Assembly (NCBI GenBank): GCA_022865525.1
Contig: JALHSV010000526.1
Location: 1 to 42,259 of the forward strand
Length of the DNA stretch: 42,259 nucleotides
Origin: Thermodesulfovibrionales bacterium
GTDB lineage: Bacteria > Nitrospirota > Thermodesulfovibrionia > Thermodesulfovibrionales > SM23-35
Direction of reading: 5' to 3'
Within the stretch, counting starts at the first letter, position 1. Each line of letters opens with the position of its first letter. A program made the position numbers and the translations under genes. Positions 2,095 to 42,259 of this stretch are shown here, one piece after another. The notes beneath the pieces are model-generated. The model worked only from the letters and a program-made list of their open reading frames with translations, ran no database searches and was not told the origin of the DNA.

Positions 2095-3035
2095 TTCTGT
2101 TTCCCGTACTCCGGCTTGTAATGCAGTTCAAACCATCGGTCTTTTTCTTCCTCAGACGATATATGGGCGAGAATGTCGTCAAACTCCGCCTTATTCTTAG
2201 GTGGCGGGTAACTATCGACACCATATACTCTTTTCTGTTGTTTTTCTGGTTGTGCGGTTTTTGGTTGTGTAGCTGGCGGTGGTTGACTCCCTGCTTTTTC
2301 AATTTCTGCGTCTATTTTCTTTGCCTTACCAACCCCCATCTTCTTACGGATTTCAGCTAATCTATCATTGGCAAGCTGTTCGCCTTCTACGTCCCTTGTT
2401 ATTGGCAGGCTTTGGCCTGTCGCTTGTGCGAGTATCTGGGACTGAACAGTGGCCGTATCAGAACCGGTTGCCCTTCTTTTAGCTTCCTGCCAATATCGGT
2501 ACTGGTCCTCTAATGAATCCGGCTCTTTTAACGTACCGCCTTCGGCCTCTATTCGTCCTTGAAATTCTCCATATTGTTCTTCAGGAACAAGTGCCTGCCG
2601 CTTCTTGCCGTCTTTGTCAAACCATGATGTTTGATATGAACGGCCTTTTGTCGGATTTAACCTTTTATCAGTCAGCGCCTTAGTAGATTCTATCCGGGCC
2701 TGTTTGTATTCCCTGTCAAGCGGGTCCTGAAATGCCTGCTGCATTAGCCCCTGGCCGACCTGTGCCTGCATCTGGGAAGGTGGGGCAAAGCTACTGGCTA
2801 TCTTCTGCAGGAAGCCTACTGAGCCCGTTGAGTATTGAGGCTGGTTCTGGGAGAGTGCCTGTGCTATTTCCTGCGGCCCGCCGCCTTGAGAGACTATATT
2901 TATCACCTTAGCGTTCAAAGACCGTTCCTGCCTTAATCCCTCGACCTTACCGATAGTTTCGAGAATATCGGCAATGGCATTGAACGAGCCTCCGTACTTT
3001 CCCTGAGGATTGGTCAAATCGACTATCTGCGGCAT
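2091..3035 (-). CDS. Internal-virion/ejection-type protein (hypothetical), 314 aa
   Basis: Long ORF, Q/G/A-rich and charged. It sits between another internal-type protein and the giant protein at the end of the structural operon, and its stop overlaps the next start (ATGA). Confidence 0.5.
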   Translation of the reverse strand: MPQIVDLTNPQGKYGGSFNAIADILETIGKVEGLRQERSLNAKVINIVSQGGGPQEIAQALSQNQPQYSTGSVGFLQKIASSFAPPSQMQAQVGQGLMQQAFQDPLDREYKQARIESTKALTDKRLNPTKGRSYQTSWFDKDGKKRQALVPEEQYGEFQGRIEAEGGTLKEPDSLEDQYRYWQEAKRRATGSDTATVQSQILAQATGQSLPITRDVEGEQLANDRLAEIRKKMGVGKAKKIDAEIEKAGSQPPPATQPKTAQPEKQQKRVYGVDSYPPPKNKAEFDDILAHISSEEEKDRWFELHYKPEYGKQK

Positions 3036-3043
3036 TATTTCAC

Positions 3044-3919
3044 CTAATTTTCGTAATAATATGGATTAGCTTGTGCGTTCATTACATCGCCTGTGGTAGT
3101 ACCTTTATTGCCCCCGGCATTTATGGCCGCAGTCAAAAGCGAACCTATCAACGGGGATGCCTGAGCGAACATAGACGGCTCACCACCCTCAACACTACCT
3201 ACCGAGTTACCCATTATCGAGGATAGTATCTGGGGCTGGGTATTGAATCTGAAGTTAATATCGTTCATCGCCTTACCGTATTGAGCGTCCTCTATCTGTT
3301 GGGATATACTCCGGGTCAGAGAACCTAAATCGACGGCAGTCCCTATCTTCTTTAGTTTGGAAGTCTCTTTGGCCGCCCCTGTCCTTTCGAGGCCGCCGGC
3401 CGCGCCCATTCTTCTGTTCTCGGCGGCGTTCAGGTACTCAGACAACGCCCCGGCAATTCTTTCCTGAATAGCTGTAACGCCCCGGCCTAAAACGTCCCTG
3501 CCGGTATTAGAGCCGAAGTTGCCCTGTGTAACCATCCCCCTGCCGAGCCTGTTCAGCATCAGGTTCCCTTCCTCGGTAGCTTTTGCGGTTATGCCCCTTA
3601 CTTCCGGCCTATCGAGAATATCGCCCGGGGCCGCTATATCCCTGTACGTCTGGGAAGCGTAGTTTATATCAGCCGATTCGGGGCTGTCGATAAACTGCTG
3701 GCCCATACTAATCGCTTGATTCTGCATACCACTCAACGGGGCAACGCCCTGCGTAGGCATATTTACGTCTTCCTTGCCCCTTGCGAGTAGTTCGTCCATA
3801 GAAGCGTAATACTGAGGGGGGAGCTTGACCTTCTTACTCTTAGAGCCGCCGAACATACTGCCTGCCGTTAAGCCTAATCCACCACCTATTAACGCCCCGG
3901 TCAATGCTGTCATAGCCAT
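3044..3919 (-). CDS. Internal-virion-type protein with a Gly-rich hydrophobic N-terminus, 291 aa
   Basis: N-terminus MAMTALTGALIGGGLGLTAGSMFGG. The rest is Gly/Asn/Gln-rich. Function inferred from position in the structural operon. Confidence 0.5.
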   Translation of the reverse strand: MAMTALTGALIGGGLGLTAGSMFGGSKSKKVKLPPQYYASMDELLARGKEDVNMPTQGVAPLSGMQNQAISMGQQFIDSPESADINYASQTYRDIAAPGDILDRPEVRGITAKATEEGNLMLNRLGRGMVTQGNFGSNTGRDVLGRGVTAIQERIAGALSEYLNAAENRRMGAAGGLERTGAAKETSKLKKIGTAVDLGSLTRSISQQIEDAQYGKAMNDINFRFNTQPQILSSIMGNSVGSVEGGEPSMFAQASPLIGSLLTAAINAGGNKGTTTGDVMNAQANPYYYEN

Positions 3920-32091: not shown

Positions 32092-32520
32092 TTATTTGTT
32101 CACCCTACGGTTCTTCATGTTTTCTGCGTGTGTTATAAATCGGATATTCCCTCTTTCATAATGGCCATTTGTATCTACACGGTCAATATCAAGCCCCCTT
32201 GTCTCTGTTTTTAGTTCATTCAATATATGGGTTAGAAAATCCTCAAAAGAATCGAAATTGACCTTTATGCCTCTTTCGCCATAGTATTTATAATCTTTTC
32301 GCCTGGGATTACTGCATCGCTGTAGCATCTGCTTCCAAATAACACGCAAACGACCTTTAATGCTTTTGCTCTGCTCTTTATACATTTTATTTACAACTTC
32401 TCTCTTACACGTTTTACATTGCCGTGTCATTCCATCTATGCGACTCCGGTCTCTGTAAAAATACTCCACTGTTGCAGGATACGGCTTTTTACATTTTCCA
32501 CATCTTTTGTTATCTTGCAT
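32092..32520 (-). CDS. HNH-family homing endonuclease, 142 aa
   Basis: CGKCKK...CKTCK Zn motif; W..M..RC.NP....YKYYGERGI.V; LDIDRVDTNGHYERGNIRFITHAENMKN. Confidence 0.7.
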   Translation of the reverse strand: MQDNKRCGKCKKPYPATVEYFYRDRSRIDGMTRQCKTCKREVVNKMYKEQSKSIKGRLRVIWKQMLQRCSNPRRKDYKYYGERGIKVNFDSFEDFLTHILNELKTETRGLDIDRVDTNGHYERGNIRFITHAENMKNRRVNK

Positions 32521-32545: not shown

Positions 32546-32836
32546 TTAGCATTCAGTTACAATAATTATCCGTTTTTCCTCTGGTATCAATTCCATTATC
32601 TCTTGTAATGTCGGAGGTTCTGCTTCGCCAATCAATTCCTTCTCTAAGCCTTCGCGATTCAAGCCAAATTCGTGAGTATAAACAGGTCTGCCCAATGCTT
32701 CTTCAATAGCTTGATGGAATACACCAAACGGCATACAGAGCTTATCTTCAAATAGTTGGAATTTGGCAATTTCCTCTGATGTTAGGTGTTCCCAAAATCC
32801 TGATCCCGCCAATGTTATTGCTTCTTCTTTGGTCAT
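32546..32836 (-). CDS. Hypothetical protein, 96 aa
   Basis: ORF with the RBS-like sequence GGGAAG upstream. Confidence 0.45.
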   Translation of the reverse strand: MTKEEAITLAGSGFWEHLTSEEIAKFQLFEDKLCMPFGVFHQAIEEALGRPVYTHEFGLNREGLEKELIGEAEPPTLQEIMELIPEEKRIIIVTEC

Positions 32837-35615: not shown

Positions 35616-35818
35616 TCATTCTCCTTACAACCTGCACATATACTCTGCCCGTCTTTATCCTTGCATATCAGGAAGTTAAATAAATGACATACCGGGCAGT
35701 ATGCACCGACCATAACGGGGAGGTTATACTTTGCTCGTATGCGGGCATCATCCTGTTGGCCGATACGGTTCGCTTCATCATTTCTGCTTTCGCCTACTCG
35801 GTTCATAAACACCTCCAC
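35612..35818 (-). CDS. Small zinc-ribbon protein, 68 aa
   Basis: CPVCH...CAGC motif. Confidence 0.4.
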   Translation of the reverse strand: MEVFMNRVGESRNDEANRIGQQDDARIRAKYNLPVMVGAYCPVCHLFNFLICKDKDGQSICAGCKENE

Positions 35819-35888
35819 AGGAACAGAATCAACAGTAAAACACCCGCTTCTGTTATCAGTAAGTATGCGATGAATCCCTTTAGATTAG

Positions 35889-36266
35889 TCATTTCACCCC
35901 CTGATGTATGTTGCCGATTACTTCAACAAATATTGAAGAAAATAGCCTGAAGCCATAGCTTACTTCTTCTTTAGTAGTGGGCGTTTCTATGACTTTTCCA
36001 TCTTTGAAAGAGATATTGTACCATTGCACCCTATCCCCCTCATAAATCTCCACGCCGTTCTTGTCCTTCAGGCCGGTGTACTCCTCAAATATAAATCTGC
36101 CTTGTTCTGGTTCATCGCTATTTATCTGGCTCGGACGTTGCGTTTTATTAAAACCGATATAATCAACAAACGCATAGAATATTTTGCAATAATGGTCACA
36201 TTCCGAAAGCATACCCATTTCTTTGCACAAATTATCCCAAACTCTAAATTTTATCTCTCTACTCAT
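35889..36266 (-). CDS. YopX-family protein
   Basis: IKFRVWD...; EEYTGLKDKNGVEIYEGD; EVIGNIHQ. These are the classic YopX motifs. Confidence 0.75.
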   Translation of the reverse strand: MSREIKFRVWDNLCKEMGMLSECDHYCKIFYAFVDYIGFNKTQRPSQINSDEPEQGRFIFEEYTGLKDKNGVEIYEGDRVQWYNISFKDGKVIETPTTKEEVSYGFRLFSSIFVEVIGNIHQGVK

Positions 36267-36547: not shown

Positions 36548-36859
36548 TCAGTCTCCTAAATTGAGTTCCAGATATTCTTTGACTTTCAGCCAGTATTCTT
36601 TCGTGCTTTCCCTGTATCGCTCAGTTGGGCACTTATGCGACCTTGCCATAGTCTCAATATCGCTATTGCCGTAATGCTGTATGACTATCGAGGTCATTTC
36701 TCGGCTCTTGGCTCTGTCCCGCCTGTCGATATAGTCGAATTTGTGCCATCCGAGTATCCTATTGGCGTCTCGGACGTAGATTTCATGTATCTGGTAAGCA
36801 CCCAATGCTAAACCGCCGTCACCGATAGAATTGTCAGGGTCGGCTTCTCCCCTGCTTTC
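36548..36859 (-). CDS. SLT-type lytic transglycosylase catalytic domain; the open frame has no ATG/GTG start
   Basis: The frame opens right after an in-frame TGA (36862-36860) with ESRGEADPDNSIGDGGLALGAYQIHEIYVRDANRILG...STKEYWLKVK (ES...G..G.xQI...Y pattern). The first TTG is at 36805, after the putative catalytic Glu. Confidence 0.55.
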   Translation of the reverse strand, partial: ESRGEADPDNSIGDGGLALGAYQIHEIYVRDANRILGWHKFDYIDRRDRAKSREMTSIVIQHYGNSDIETMARSHKCPTERYRESTKEYWLKVKEYLELNLGD

Positions 36860-36978
36860 TCAGGGGCCGGTTCGTACCACGCTGCCATAGCACAAAGTAA
36901 GCCTATGCCTATGCCTGTAAACAAAGACATTGTCCACGATATATATAATGTTGTATTATCTATTGTTATTTCTTTCAT
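36808..36978 (-). CDS. 56-aa signal-anchor ORF, probably the N-terminal part of the SLT lysozyme, in another frame
   Basis: The ATG at 36978 overlaps the upstream TGA. Translation MKEITIDNTTLYISWTMSLFTGIGIGLLCAMAAWYEPAPEK.. It overlaps the SLT frame by 52 nt. Confidence 0.45.
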   Translation of the reverse strand: MKEITIDNTTLYISWTMSLFTGIGIGLLCAMAAWYEPAPEKAGEKPTLTILSVTAV

Positions 36979-37223
36979 ATCTTCTCCGCTTCTGCGAGGG
37001 ATTGCTCTAATTCGTTGTGTAAATCACTGTGCTTGTCATTCATTTTAAGCCTAATCAAAAAGTCCTCTAATTCGTCGTGATAATTAAATGCTTTTTTACA
37101 AACATTCTTTAGTTTGTCGTGGCTGGCTTTCAGGGCGGCGTACTCGCTTTTGTTAACTATAATCGTATTATCCACTCTTCTGGTTTTTTTAAGTTGTCCC
37201 GCCAATTCTTCGTATTTGTTCAT
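36975..37223 (-). CDS. Early paralog family member 4 (LKASHDKL ... LAEAEKI), 82 aa
   Basis: Shares the YAALKASHDKL core and the C-terminal LAEAEKI with three upstream genes. Start at the ATG at 37223, behind GGAGAATGAGATT. Confidence 0.55.
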   Translation of the reverse strand: MNKYEELAGQLKKTRRVDNTIIVNKSEYAALKASHDKLKNVCKKAFNYHDELEDFLIRLKMNDKHSDLHNELEQSLAEAEKI

Positions 37224-37227
37224 AATC

Positions 37228-37476
37228 TCATTCTCCAATCTTCTTAGCTTCCGCGAGGGCTTGTTCTAAGCCACAAGTGCATTTGTTTGTATTATCAAAA
37301 AAGCCGTGACCATTTAGCAATATCCATTTCCCGCAATTCATGTATTTATGGTCGGCATATTCCACCAGCTTATCGTGGCTTGCCTTGAGCTTGTCAAATC
37401 GCTTGCATTGCTCGATATACATATTGTCTAATATCTCGTACTTGGCTATCAGCCTCTTTACATCAGTCATTCTCAT
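37228..37476 (-). CDS. Early paralog family member 3 (LKASHDKL ... ALAEAKKIGE), 82 aa
   Basis: Start moved to the ATG at 37476 (ATGA overlap with the upstream stop). Confidence 0.55.
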   Translation of the reverse strand: MRMTDVKRLIAKYEILDNMYIEQCKRFDKLKASHDKLVEYADHKYMNCGKWILLNGHGFFDNTNKCTCGLEQALAEAKKIGE

Positions 37477-37826
37477 AGTTTCTCCGCTTCTGCGAGGGCT
37501 TGATTGATTTGTATCATAGTTATTGCAATCGCCTCTGGTTCCGGTAATGGCCCCCTGCCTAATAAATGCTTTGCGCATTCTTCCAGACTTAAATCCGCAG
37601 CCTCTAACGCTTCCACCAGCCTGTCGTGGCTTGCCTTGAGCTGGCCTAAATAACAACCTTCTGTGCATCCAGCTTCATCATTTGAAAAACATATCGGGCA
37701 TCCGCCGTTTTGATAAAACTCTGTGGCGTGCTTCATCCAGTCATCGGATTCGAACTCAGCCTTAATACGGTCGTAATCTTTGCATTTTTCGACCATTCTA
37801 TTGAAATCTGTTATTCCGTCACTCAT
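37473..37826 (-). CDS. Early paralog family member 2 (LKASHDRL ... ALAEAEKL), 117 aa
   Basis: Shared motifs. The N-terminal part is Cys-rich (CPICF..GCTEGC). Confidence 0.55.
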   Translation of the reverse strand: MSDGITDFNRMVEKCKDYDRIKAEFESDDWMKHATEFYQNGGCPICFSNDEAGCTEGCYLGQLKASHDRLVEALEAADLSLEECAKHLLGRGPLPEPEAIAITMIQINQALAEAEKL

Positions 37827-37830
37827 AATC

Positions 37831-38160
37831 TCATTCTCCTATCTTCTTAGCCTCTTTGAGGGCTTGCTTATTGAAGTTTATTTGTATTTCTACTGATAAC
37901 CTATAATCGTCAGGCAAAACTGCCAAAACTGTTTTGAGCCGGTTAGTTGATGCCCTTACTTCCGTTTTTAGCCTATCGTGGCTTGCCTTGAGAGCGGCGT
38001 ATTCGGCTAATTGCACGGATTCCGCCATTCTTTTTCCTTTTAGAACAGCTTGGCCTATTTCACAATTTGGGCATATCTGGTCAGGAAGTTTATCGCCGGG
38101 AACTACTTCTGTGCCTTTGATAATTCCTGTATCTTTACAATAAAAACATTCATTACTCAT
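37831..38160 (-). CDS. Early paralog family member 1 (YAALKASHDRL ... ALKEAKKIGE), 109 aa
   Basis: Shared motifs. N-terminal CFYCKD...CPNC zinc-ribbon-like motif. Confidence 0.55.
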   Translation of the reverse strand: MSNECFYCKDTGIIKGTEVVPGDKLPDQICPNCEIGQAVLKGKRMAESVQLAEYAALKASHDRLKTEVRASTNRLKTVLAVLPDDYRLSVEIQINFNKQALKEAKKIGE

Positions 38161-38273
38161 AATCTCATTCTCCTATCTTCTAAAAAGGCCGACGCCGGCT
38201 TCCTTGCACGGCTTCCTTTGCCTCTGGCGTCAACCTGGGCGTCCTTGCCATTTTCATTCTCCTTGTTTACTTG

Positions 38274-39244: not shown

Positions 39245-42200
39245 TTATTTCATCTGTTTGTTTGCTTGCTGTGCCACTTTTAATCTCATCGAATCAACTT
39301 TTGCTAATCTTGCCCTTTTCTCTTTATCTGGTATATCCATTTTTATAATAGCCTCCGCTTGCTTATTCAATTTAGACAGGAGTTCGCGGGTCGTCTTCAT
39401 AATCGGCCCCTGTATTATCCCGGGATTTGCCTGCTTAAACTTTTCGGACTTAGCGTATTCCTGCTTTTCCTGTGGAGTCAAAGGCTTTACTGCCTGTTGT
39501 TCGGCGGTCGTTAAGGGTCTTTGCTCTTTTAGTTCCAACAACATATCCTGCTGTTGTTTTCTTGCTATAATGTCCTTATATATCTGGCTATATGTATCGT
39601 AGGCACTTATGACCTTACCGCTGTCCTCGTAGAAATCCTGAATCGACTGAGCCTGTGGGCCTGTAGGTGATCTGCCAACGAATGCTTTTACTACGGGTAT
39701 GTCAGCTAATTCTTTCGGCCTCGCAGGAGGTGCTTCGTCTTTCTTTATTGCGTTTATCAGCGCATCGGTTGCTTGTAAACCGTACCTGCCAGAACCGCCT
39801 GTCCATCCACTTATGAGATTCTCTATCTTTGCCGGACTGTAATTAAGCCATTCACCCATATACTTTGCCGATTCAGATGTGTAACGACTGTATTGGTATG
39901 CAGCGTCAAGGTCTTTCTTGCCTTCGGGAACGATTGGTCTTTCAAGGAAGAAATTGCGATTGCCCCAGTTTTCCATGATAGGCTTTAATGCGGTAGGCAA
40001 AAGGTTTCCTTCCGGCTCGCCACTGATAGGAGTCAGGCTTTCAATGATAGTATCGCCAAAGTCCTTAAATGCTTTCGGGTCCTTTGTAGCTAAATACTCC
40101 ATAAGTCTTTCAGGAAGTGAGCCGTATAACTGGCCCCAGAAAAACGGCTTTATTATATGGATAGGCGACTTGCCTTCTCGCATATACGTCCAGAACAAGT
40201 CTTTTCGCCATCGTGGTATTTCTTTATAATCCTTATTCTTGCGATTATGAAGGTATAAGAGTATTGAAGGAAGAGTAATTGCGGAAAAACCCTTAATGGC
40301 CGTCGATATAGGATGTCTATATGCAGTACGAACATTCTTATCAGCGCCCTGTATCCCCGCATTAAGAAAGGCCACCATACTATTAAGGTCCTTCATCTTT
40401 GCGCCACGCCGTTGAAAGTCAAGAGTACCCTCCCTGCTCTCGAATCCCGCCTCTATCGGGGTCTTGCCCGACTTAACCGCCCTCTTGAACATACCGACTC
40501 TCGTTGCCTGCTCCATTAGCTGAGACAAATCCTGCATAGTGGCTATTGGATTAAGCCTGGCTAACATTCTTCTGGCTCTTGTCGATGTGAGTTCTTTGGC
40601 CGCTTTTTTGAGTGATGGTCTGTTAAGCTCTACAAAGCCGGAATAAGCCCCGCCAGACCTCAGCCAATCATAATAAAGGTCTGTCCTGCCGAGAATATCC
40701 GCAATAGCACCCATCGAGTCATAGAACGGGATAAAGCCAAAAGAAGTCTGCATCAGTCCCGTCCACTGGTCACGGATAGGATTCCTTAATACAAACTCAG
40801 GCGTACTCGTAGCACCTATTCTCAGCCAGTGTGCAGGGTTAGACAGGATTTTTATAACCAGCGACGAACCTTCTTCGTTCAGTCCGGTCATTGCATCGTA
40901 AAGGTTTGGGCTTACCTCGATGTACTTCCGCTTGCCCTTATCGAAATACTCTATGACTTTGCCTTTAGGTGCGAATTGGGACGGCCTGAATATGGTACTC
41001 TCAACAGGTTCCTGTGAAATGATTACATTTTGCGTTTCTTTAATGACTTGCCGGATAGTCTCCGTCGTCATTTCAGGCGTTTCCGCAGATTCACCTTTTC
41101 TTATCTGATTGATAAAACTATTGGCTTCGCCTTCGCTGTACCCTCTTTTAGTCAATGATTCCCTGACCACCTTTTCGAGTTTCTTTATCGGGCCGGATAC
41201 ATCTGCACCCTTACCGCCTTCGGTCTTTATATCCCTAAATTCCTTCATTACCTTCGCAGAGTTTGTTCTGAACTCTCTCGATATGGTAAGTATCTCTTTC
41301 GGGTCAACCTTAATTGGCATCATCTTCACCCGAATAGGTCTTATATCTTCGGGCAGGGCTTTACCAAGTTTCGCTACGTTCCGGGCTACTGTATTCCTGT
41401 CAGCGGCTTCCATTATCCTGAAGGTATTTTTAATAATGCTCTCGATGGGGTCGTGTATCTCTTTCTCTGAGCCTTTTATCTTCTTAACGGGGGCGCGGGC
41501 TTTAGTGAATCGTCCCTTAGATACAGGAACTCCGCCGGCCATCTCGTCACCTAATACCCTATCGAAAGGTATGTAATGCTGATTCTTTGAAAGAATGCCG
41601 TCATACTGCTTCTGGGACAGGTTGCCGCCGTCAACTAACGTATGGAGTACCCTTTTTTGAAATTCATATAGACGCTGTGCGGAATCTTCTAATACCTCCA
41701 TCCCGGCCGGGCCGTACTTTTTCTTTAGTCTCTCCAAGTCCATCTTAGACTTTTGGACCTGTTCGTTACTAACTATATTCTGTTTCGACCAGTCACTTGC
41801 CGGTCTTTGCAGGTCAAGGATAGTCCTCTGTGATTCGAGGTAGGTCTTTAAGTCGGCCTTTCTTTTCTTGCGGGTCTTCTCAAATGGTTTACCTGCCGTA
41901 TCGTAATCGTCCAGGATAGGCTTTAAGCCTTCGCCGGTAATTTTATAAGTACCTTCGGGCATTATCTCGTAGGTTTTGTCCTCTAATACCGACTCCACTT
42001 TACGGCCTAATCCGAGGTAACTTCTCGCCCTTAATCCGGGGTTCTCTCCGGGCTTAATCTCCATACCTAACTTCTGAGCTTTCTTCGTAGTGTTCTCGAT
42101 AGAGGCGAATCGGTTGATAGCGTTCTGATAAATCTTTTCTGCGCCTTCTCGCAATGCCTCCGGGCTTGGTGTTCGTGGCAAACTGAGGAAGCCGCCCTGC

Positions 42201-42259
42201 CTGGCCTTCTCTACCTTTGGAGCTACTGCCCTCTGGAACGGAGCTATGGCTTTTTTAAT
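39245..42259 (-). CDS. C-terminal ~957 codons of the giant virion protein (same gene as 1..2094; open to the window end)
   Basis: The track ORF 39245..42181 begins at a TTG only because no start codon lies further upstream in the window. The frame stays open to 42259 and continues at 2094..1. Confidence 0.8.
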   Translation of the reverse strand: MKKAIAPFQRAVAPKVEKARQGGFLSLPRTPSPEALREGAEKIYQNAINRFASIENTTKKAQKLGMEIKPGENPGLRARSYLGLGRKVESVLEDKTYEIMPEGTYKITGEGLKPILDDYDTAGKPFEKTRKKRKADLKTYLESQRTILDLQRPASDWSKQNIVSNEQVQKSKMDLERLKKKYGPAGMEVLEDSAQRLYEFQKRVLHTLVDGGNLSQKQYDGILSKNQHYIPFDRVLGDEMAGGVPVSKGRFTKARAPVKKIKGSEKEIHDPIESIIKNTFRIMEAADRNTVARNVAKLGKALPEDIRPIRVKMMPIKVDPKEILTISREFRTNSAKVMKEFRDIKTEGGKGADVSGPIKKLEKVVRESLTKRGYSEGEANSFINQIRKGESAETPEMTTETIRQVIKETQNVIISQEPVESTIFRPSQFAPKGKVIEYFDKGKRKYIEVSPNLYDAMTGLNEEGSSLVIKILSNPAHWLRIGATSTPEFVLRNPIRDQWTGLMQTSFGFIPFYDSMGAIADILGRTDLYYDWLRSGGAYSGFVELNRPSLKKAAKELTSTRARRMLARLNPIATMQDLSQLMEQATRVGMFKRAVKSGKTPIEAGFESREGTLDFQRRGAKMKDLNSMVAFLNAGIQGADKNVRTAYRHPISTAIKGFSAITLPSILLYLHNRKNKDYKEIPRWRKDLFWTYMREGKSPIHIIKPFFWGQLYGSLPERLMEYLATKDPKAFKDFGDTIIESLTPISGEPEGNLLPTALKPIMENWGNRNFFLERPIVPEGKKDLDAAYQYSRYTSESAKYMGEWLNYSPAKIENLISGWTGGSGRYGLQATDALINAIKKDEAPPARPKELADIPVVKAFVGRSPTGPQAQSIQDFYEDSGKVISAYDTYSQIYKDIIARKQQQDMLLELKEQRPLTTAEQQAVKPLTPQEKQEYAKSEKFKQANPGIIQGPIMKTTRELLSKLNKQAEAIIKMDIPDKEKRARLAKVDSMRLKVAQQANKQMK
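42119..42259. repeat. Terminal direct repeat identical to 1-141
   Basis: 141/141 identity. Confidence 0.95.

Follow-up and report, generated by a model that had tools for sequence, protein, structure and literature searches.

A tandem array of four small genes with a fixed frame and apparently exchangeable modules in a metagenomic phage genome

That phages evolve by exchanging modules at conserved boundary sequences has long been proposed. To our knowledge, clean examples of such exchange inside very small proteins are few. In T4-type phages, PeSL cassettes are short conserved sequences repeated between small non-essential open reading frames (ORFs), and recombination at these cassettes inserts, deletes and replaces ORFs in hyperplastic, ORFan-rich regions (Arbiol et al. 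2010, PMC2839356; PMC4122927). In the T-even gp38 adhesin, hypervariable segments alternate with conserved motifs rich in glycine (Trojet et al. 2011, PMC3157838). The locus considered here is an array of four small genes, M1 to M4, on the minus strand of contig JALHSV010000526.1 (assembly GCA_022865525.1, filed under a Thermodesulfovibrionales bacterium). The whole stretch of 42,259 nucleotides (nt) is called the window below and originates from DNA runs of a sediment metagenome. Because its ends share an exact overlap of 141 nt (positions 1-141 and 42119-42259), the window is a circularly assembled, complete phage genome of about 42.1 kb. M1-M4 probably represent a family with a fixed frame and exchangeable contents, a judgement that covers family, mosaic structure and exchange jointly.

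The four genes are adjacent, and the ORF list bears out the positions given for them in an earlier sequence-only reading of this DNA. Compared contigs are designated below by L-numbers and compared proteins by P-numbers. M1 (38160-37831, 109 amino acids (aa)) carries CxxC...CxxC in its N-terminal module (N-module), the core LKASHDRL at 37992-37969 and the tail QALKEAKKIGE. M2 (37826-37473, 117 aa) has an N-module with CPIC...CTEGC, the core LKASHDRL (37640-37617) and the tail QALAEAEKL. In M3 (37476-37228, 82 aa), an N-module of the commonest type is followed by the core LKASHDKL (37389-37366), a mid-module of the form H..C...CxCG, which is a putative zinc knuckle, and the tail QALAEAKKIGE. 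M4 (37223-36975, 82 aa) lacks a Cys pair; its core LKASHDKL lies at 37133-37110, and its tail is QSLAEAEKI. The common core and C-terminus proposed by the sequence-only reading were recovered as the invariant alignment columns LKASHD.L and Q.L.EA.K. The CxxC pairs it had attributed to two copies are those of M1 and M2, while M3 has CxC plus H/C. It had also named non-significant pairwise similarity as a refuting result; the BLASTP E-values among M1-M4 are 8e-7 to 3e-3, as compared with 0.29 or worse against neighbouring non-family ORFs. A tandem array of four true paralogs is supported.

The profile of M1-M4 detected just 12 outside homologs in 5.8e9 clustered proteins. When a 16-member profile was searched with HMMER against 1.84e9 representatives, 126 clusters were obtained at E ≤1e-3, all of 59-184 aa, and in nearly all of them the match ended at the C-terminus or a few residues from it. 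The same search recovered each of M1-M4 at E ≤1e-15. The consensus is K-Y-D-A-L-K-A-S-H-x-K-L-V-E-A-L ... Q-A-L-(A/K)-E-A-E-K-(I/L), and within the core Ser is conserved in 129 of 130 sequences, the second Leu in 128 and His in 122. In agreement with the claim that no known domain is involved, M1-M4 have no significant match in Pfam, PHROGs, NCBIfam or PADLOC; the same databases gave nothing significant for the proteins neighbouring M1-M4, and comparison of a sequence profile with PDB yielded coiled-coil noise only. Neither the region, nor a PF27050 protein, nor a hand-written consensus-like family member had a match among GenBank phages by blastn and tblastn. A profile-guided scan of an IMG/VR copy, together with two degenerate DNA patterns, gave only the chance matches L007 and L008, and no member was present in the GTDB species genomes. 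About half of the 26 metagenome pattern matches were due to chance and had no profile match. The contigs bearing members resemble phage accessory regions, with YopX, ASCH, ParB_N, PAPS reductase, DNA methyltransferase and CsrA. The family is thus undescribed, rare and confined to phage-like metagenomic contigs.

Comparison of copy number across relatives, which had been suggested as a check, revealed that tandem arrays of two to at least four unlike copies recur. L027 has three full members and a partial one, with the junction EKIG(D/E)-stop-ATTATG as in the phage array; L009 and L025 have two copies, and L001, L002, L006, L010, L028 and L033 have one. P0070 consists of two fused units, and P0007 has a duplicated core. 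In L001 (1629-1958), L009 (762-1124, oriented) and L005 (3-110), the family is preceded by a gene whose product has a coiled-coil N-terminal region, a single membrane helix and, at the C-terminus, a CQT(V/A/F)KG..GD..W segment; we take it to resemble entericidin-type lipoproteins. Positions 1-25 of L006, AGATGTGTATAAGAGACAG, are presumably a Nextera transposase adapter left in the public assembly.

The members have a common layout: a variable N-module, the invariant core, a variable mid-module, often with an H/C...CxC knuckle, and the invariant C-terminus. For comparison of modules, 129 family proteins were split at the core and tail motif. Among the protein pairs, 183 were similar in the N-module, 139 in the mid-module and only one in both, this near-lack of doubly similar pairs being partly built in, as the library was clustered at 50% identity. 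Such clustering drops some concordant pairs, and the positive evidence is therefore the many combinations of modules. The largest N-cluster, of 18 proteins with M3 among them, combines with 16 mid-clusters, and the largest mid-cluster, of 24 proteins with H..C...CxCG and again with M3, combines with 22 N-clusters. Judged from these combinations, N- and mid-modules evidently assort almost independently. The array itself is part of this pattern: the N-module of M1 recurs in P0003 with an M3-type mid-module, that of M2 recurs in P0006 with a different mid-module, and the mid-module type of M1 is also seen in P0031 behind a different N-module.

The nucleotide alignments place the changes of identity at the motifs. 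M1 and the corresponding part of L005 are 85-95% identical from the initiation cassette to the core, about 35-40% identical in the mid-module and 80-86% identical in the tail and junction. M2 and L006 show the same drop at the core and the same return at the tail. All told, the three related contig pairs, L009 and L014 being the third, are 75-100% identical up to the core, become unalignable in the mid-module and are similar again at the C-terminal motif. The contrast is clearest between L009 and L014: a stretch of about 390 nt that closes with ...AAGCTGGTGG (the end of LKASHTKLV) is 99-100% identical, the next 110 nt or so match at about 30-36%, and a complete match over CTTGCGGAGGCAAAGATATGA then gives way to divergence. 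In this pair of contigs, the exchange would have been very recent. As identity drops at the core and returns at the tail in three pairs, the invariant motifs appear to be the exchange breakpoints, and the constant segments together with the initiation cassette evidently act as sites of recombinational cassette exchange. Alignment ends from BLASTP of all family pairs were also tried as a guide to breakpoints, but this approach was dropped as circular by construction. Unequal crossing-over between the constant segments would produce the tandem arrays, the fused P0070 and the duplicated core of P0007. As to evolutionary mechanism, the array can be regarded with good confidence as a clear natural case of cassette shuffling, in which two motifs of 8-16 residues and a ribosome-binding cassette delimit swappable units, with breakpoints resolved to a few bases where the compared genomes are almost identical.

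The junctions of the array, all read on the minus strand, are of two types. The 23-nt sequence AAGATWGGAGAATGAGATTATGA is present in three places (0.00 expected), namely following M1, following M3 and upstream of M1. Type A is found between M1 and M2 (37823-37845), where the M1 codons K I G E stop hold the Shine-Dalgarno sequence GGAG and the ATG of M2 lies 4 nt past the M1 stop, and between M3 and M4 (37220-37242, AAGATTGGAGAATGAGATTATGA). Type B, GCAGAAGCGGAGAA(A/G)(C/A)TATGA, has its GGAG within the codons A-E-K, and the next start overlaps the stop; it follows M2 (37473-37493, GCAGAAGCGGAGAAACTATGA, the M3 start overlapping the M2 stop as ATGA) and M4 (36975-36995, GCAGAAGCGGAGAAGATATGA). 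Both types read as the sequence-only reading had claimed, with C-terminal codons doubling as the Shine-Dalgarno sequence of the following gene. Since the last codons are also the ribosome-binding site of the next gene, the array is evidently translationally coupled. The junctions measure 0-4 nt or overlap, and no minus-strand promoter- or terminator-like site was found at any of them. The initiation cassette upstream of M1 (38157-38179, AAGATAGGAGAATGAGATTATGA) is identical to the M1/M2 junction. It would have been copied along with each unit or homogenised by conversion. The sequence GGAGAATGA has seven minus-strand occurrences against 0.47 expected and also precedes the unrelated genes 38522, 35615 and 30788; it is the general ribosome-binding and initiation context of the phage. 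In L001 (2597-2809), a 70-aa protein lacking the LKASH core ends in KEAEKL-stop with an overlapping ATGA, and the tail/junction block can therefore sit on non-family genes.

Structure prediction, another suggested check, gave a hairpin for M1 and a helix/beta-hairpin/helix arrangement for M3. In the AlphaFold2 model of M1, built from the family alignment (mean pLDDT 78.5), residues 1-33 are poorly defined, and a helix at 34-79 is followed by a turn and a second helix at 84-108. The M3 model (pLDDT 81) has a helix at 3-46, a beta-hairpin at 50-61 with the H/C...CxC ligands and a helix at 70-81. Foldseek searches of both models against PDB and BFVD returned no significant structural neighbour, the best E-values being 0.18-1.8 and all matches being generic helices. 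In M1, the core (57-64) and tail motif (99-106) are equidistant from the turn and should therefore face each other in an antiparallel hairpin. A heptad reading of the core puts Y, L, H, L and L on a/d positions with His at 'a', so that the invariant His would lie in the seam, next to small residues. In the proposed helical hairpin, the core would face the C-terminal motif as a constant clasp, with the mid-module displayed at the tip and the N-module at the free end. Exchange at the motifs would yield folded proteins because such a frame would tolerate any insert. Moderate confidence is attached to this structural rationale. A generic fold-closing clasp, if real, would explain why the exchange products are functional and might serve as a natural display scaffold.

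Nearly all genes of the window are on the minus strand, as are all those given here with window coordinates. Terminase, portal, major head and tail genes occupy 25 kb down to position 1 and continue across the circular junction, where the structural block is prolonged by the gene of a 978-aa protein (42181-39245), which in phage databases matches nothing but large proteins, mostly annotated as hypothetical, of Pelagibacter and Bacillus phages. Two small genes past the 978-aa gene there is a terminator-like hairpin at 38773-38744 (12 pairs, 9 of them G-C, with a T-rich tail), which is the strongest terminator-like minus-strand site genome-wide and would close the late/virion block. The order beyond it is a Cys-rich 82-aa gene (38522-38274, no family match), a G+C-rich spacer, the array, YopX, HNH, a replisome organiser and a NinG/Rap-type recombination endonuclease (28418-27915); the presence of the last enzyme in the phage is counted for exchange. 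The HNH endonuclease, DUF7736 and YopX genes of the early block lie at 32092-32520, 32546-32836 and 35889-36266. No polymerase, integrase or endolysin was recognisable among the ORFs scanned. The array had been assigned to the first transcribed genes, and the layout agrees with a position near the start of a transcription unit, just past the strongest terminator-like hairpin and upstream of the replication genes. Plausibly, the array heads the non-structural (early/replication) block.

The resemblance of M1-M4 could be thought a matter of chance or composition among unrelated coiled-coil peptides, and Pfam gave only weak coiled-coil matches (HALZ and others). This explanation is already refuted by the pairwise statistics, by profile matches of 1e-15 to 1e-22 in 1.84e9 proteins and by the exact repetition of the junctions. 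Along the lines of the sequence-only reading, another origin would be one gene duplicated in place to five copies, four of which were point-mutated in an arms race and one decayed to an Arg-rich mini-ORF with a KIGE* remnant. The mini-ORF of 23-25 aa, with its own AAGGAGAATGAAAATG initiation context of a kind canonical for this phage, occupies the spacer at 38180-38257 (minus strand), which has 57% G+C within a region of about 40% G+C and no family similarity; this spacer aligns just loosely with those of L005 and L006 and gave neither an Rfam match nor a significant fold (z = -1.2). The TAG of the mini-ORF (38257-38180) is indeed followed in frame by AAG ATA GGA GAA TGA. The cassette upstream of M1 matches the M1/M2 junction over 27 nt including AGAAGA and reads K-I-G-E-stop; this identity exceeds what L005 and L006 have in common with the cassette, and the LKASHD codons are identical in M1-M3, all of which would suit duplication in place. 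However, the relic of a fifth copy is not supported, as 38180-38270 contains no further family residue or other family feature, GGAGAATGA also stands ahead of unrelated genes, and in L005 and L006 the first family gene, which comes directly after non-coding DNA, is preceded by the same cassette, (A)T(A/T)GGAGAAT(G)A(G/A)ATTATGAG, reading there I-G-E-stop or G-E-stop by necessity. Moreover, the N- and mid-modules cannot be aligned among the four copies, and each has closer relatives in other contigs, in other combinations, which argues against copies that diverged in place. Duplication in place is thus improbable, and the economical reading is that the cassette upstream of M1 would be the family's own translation-initiation region.

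The conserved blocks might matter as DNA or RNA only, as recombination or regulatory sites, with the peptide motifs incidental. Identical codons in the motif blocks are more frequent between contigs than expected from the genes' own usage (0.64 and 0.58 vs 0.36 and 0.39), an excess compatible with homogenisation by exchange, and the C-terminal block doubles as a ribosome-binding site. Yet most motif codons differ synonymously between copies and contigs (CTC/CTG, AAG/AAA, GCA/GCC, CAC/CAT, GAT/GAC) with the amino acids fixed, L006 keeps AEAEKL though its protein extends further and the block has no ribosome-binding role there, and the region has no Rfam match or significant fold. A role as nucleic acid only is therefore very improbable; because synonymous codons vary and L006 keeps the tail in the absence of a ribosome-binding role, the peptide motifs themselves are evidently under protein-level selection. 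The family could also comprise cytoplasmic regulators, chaperones or inhibitors of a coupled membrane-anchored protein active on peptidoglycan. The start of the gene after the last family member overlaps the family stop (ATGA) in 10 of the 11 loci with downstream sequence. In L010, L027 and L033 (PF06725, E 1e-11 to 1e-12) and, by similarity, in L028, the product of this next gene is a 3D-domain protein with an N-terminal anchor; the next protein of L025 is anchored and has a weak endolysin-family match (phrog_2649, E = 2.7e-4). In the window, a 56-aa membrane-anchor protein (36978-36808, minus strand) is translationally coupled to M4 and related to the N-terminal anchor of the L010 protein (BLASTP E = 3e-5), but it ends (…TLTILSVTAV-stop) where the related proteins continue (…RVTAYC…) and lacks the 3D domain. 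The enzymatic domain was lost in the window while four family copies were kept. Furthermore, the phages concerned show such coupling generally, the downstream genes of L002 and L013 are different ones, and the synteny may be inherited in one phage lineage, since YopX and other neighbours are shared as well. A function tied to the envelope is accordingly doubtful, and a family of fixed frame and exchangeable modules is preferred.

Further traces of related genes occur downstream of the array on the minus strand. At 36548-36870, an overlapping frame reads ESRGEADPDNSIGDGGLALGAYQI… into the ORF 36805-36548; we presume a likeness of this frame to a lytic-transglycosylase motif, which no tool matched. 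In the region 36548-36978, an envelope gene may have been truncated or frameshifted, or the assembly may be wrong. A 29-aa hydrophobic ORF (35803-35892) is similar to the membrane anchor of the L001 protein encoded at 2806-3135 (109 aa; E = 4e-8, 57% identity) and makes a second anchor-only remnant in the region. Two genes downstream of the array, the ORF 36546-36259 encodes 95 aa without the LKASH core. Its C-terminal half (DELVEAGNEFIKTFTPHDIRSECFRAYTKLLKLLAAEE) corresponds to the mid-module of the family member P0009 (E = 1e-12), and for this reason it is called a mosaic relative; the family profile did not detect it, and profile comparison was not significant. A fifth, more distant relative is present after all. 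The sole outside homolog of this ORF is P0132, with 96% identity over half of the ORF length. P0132 and P0009 lie on one 52-kb contig, with locus tags that differ by two; the contig is binned to a Thermodesulfovibrionales metagenome-assembled genome, a hint of a related phage or prophage and perhaps of a host lineage.

Several points weigh against a shuffled family of early genes held in a constant frame, in addition to the clustering of the library. The excess identity of motif codons could reflect shared descent and not ongoing exchange. The facing of the two motifs was deduced from secondary-structure positions of one model, and in the M3 model their register would be shifted by roughly two turns of helix. 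A promoter-like site follows the terminator but scores no better than expected by chance, and the placement of the array as 'early' is therefore inferred from layout. The material is DNA of a sediment metagenome only, and the searches turned up neither a homolog whose function is known nor a structural neighbour of significance.

Most likely, the genes encode binding proteins that are expressed early and differ in target from copy to copy, serving in host takeover or counter-defence; this is a tentative guess drawn only from the position and the pattern of diversification. If it is correct, about 65 N-modules and about 65 mid-modules would be available for testing against host targets. Among known defence and anti-defence systems in PADLOC, only AbiLii was matched by M4 (E = 0.0047, 15 bits), a score that does not place M4 in that system. 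It is possible, though rather unlikely, that core and tail are kept for the purpose of a universal frame, a self-closing clasp whose coding DNA doubles as a recombination linker, with which a phage population might build a combinatorial library of binding modules. The modules would be zinc knuckles, ribbons and small beta domains, several being carried per genome, and the frame might also provide a homo- or hetero-dimerisation surface common to all paralogs. Driven by recombination and aimed at host defences or machinery, such a library would be the counterpart of an immune repertoire.

Some described protein families are similar to the family in part. T4 Vs.4/Acb2 and the histidine-kinase DHp domain are likewise two-helix hairpins of similar size, and DHp also has a conserved His on helix 1, but neither matches in sequence and the family has no H-box. 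Foldseek comparisons with Vs.4/Acb2 (7uq2, E = 1.5) and DHp (4mtx, E = 2.2) were at the chance level for hairpins, and DHp (HisKA) was rejected, with no Pfam match at E up to 1. DksA/TraR (PF01258) was rejected as well: Pfam gave no match, and the Cys modules of the family precede the hairpin or sit at its tip and do not follow it. The lambdoid Ead/Ea22-like (PF13935) and Phage_P22_Y8K6 (PF27050) proteins resemble the family as small, coiled-coil-rich, mosaic products of early or accessory regions. Ead/Ea22 was excluded, as neither M1-M4 nor any of the 16 profile members matched PF13935 in Pfam-A at E up to 1. For PF27050, hhalign of the family profile with P0133, one protein and not the PF27050 model, was not significant (E = 0.18, probability 0.3%), and the precomputed Pfam columns of the homologs P0003-P0016 list no PF27050. 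P0105 joins a PF27050-like N-domain, the sole part shared, to the LKASH core, and in L001 a PF27050 protein is in the same gene block as the family member.

The two systems described at the outset come nearer. As with PeSL, sharp identity breakpoints lie at repeated segments in three contig pairs, which makes for a likeness of function and not of membership. A PeSL is an intergenic promoter plus terminator, whereas the repeats of the family are a ribosome-binding site with start/stop context and two coding motifs; the family does not belong to the PeSL, its junctions being 0-4 nt or overlapping and having no promoter or terminator. Unlike PeSL recombination, exchange in the family would swap parts of proteins and not only whole ORFs. 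In gp38, as in the family, short conserved motifs constitute a structural core and delimit interchangeable segments within one small protein. In contrast, gp38 is an adhesin of the virion whose role in receptor binding is known, encoded by a single gene and built on glycine-rich motifs, while the family is soluble, helical, apparently located in the early region and arranged in tandem arrays. PeSL shuffling and the gp38 design are thus the closest known parallels, and the family works like both without belonging to either.

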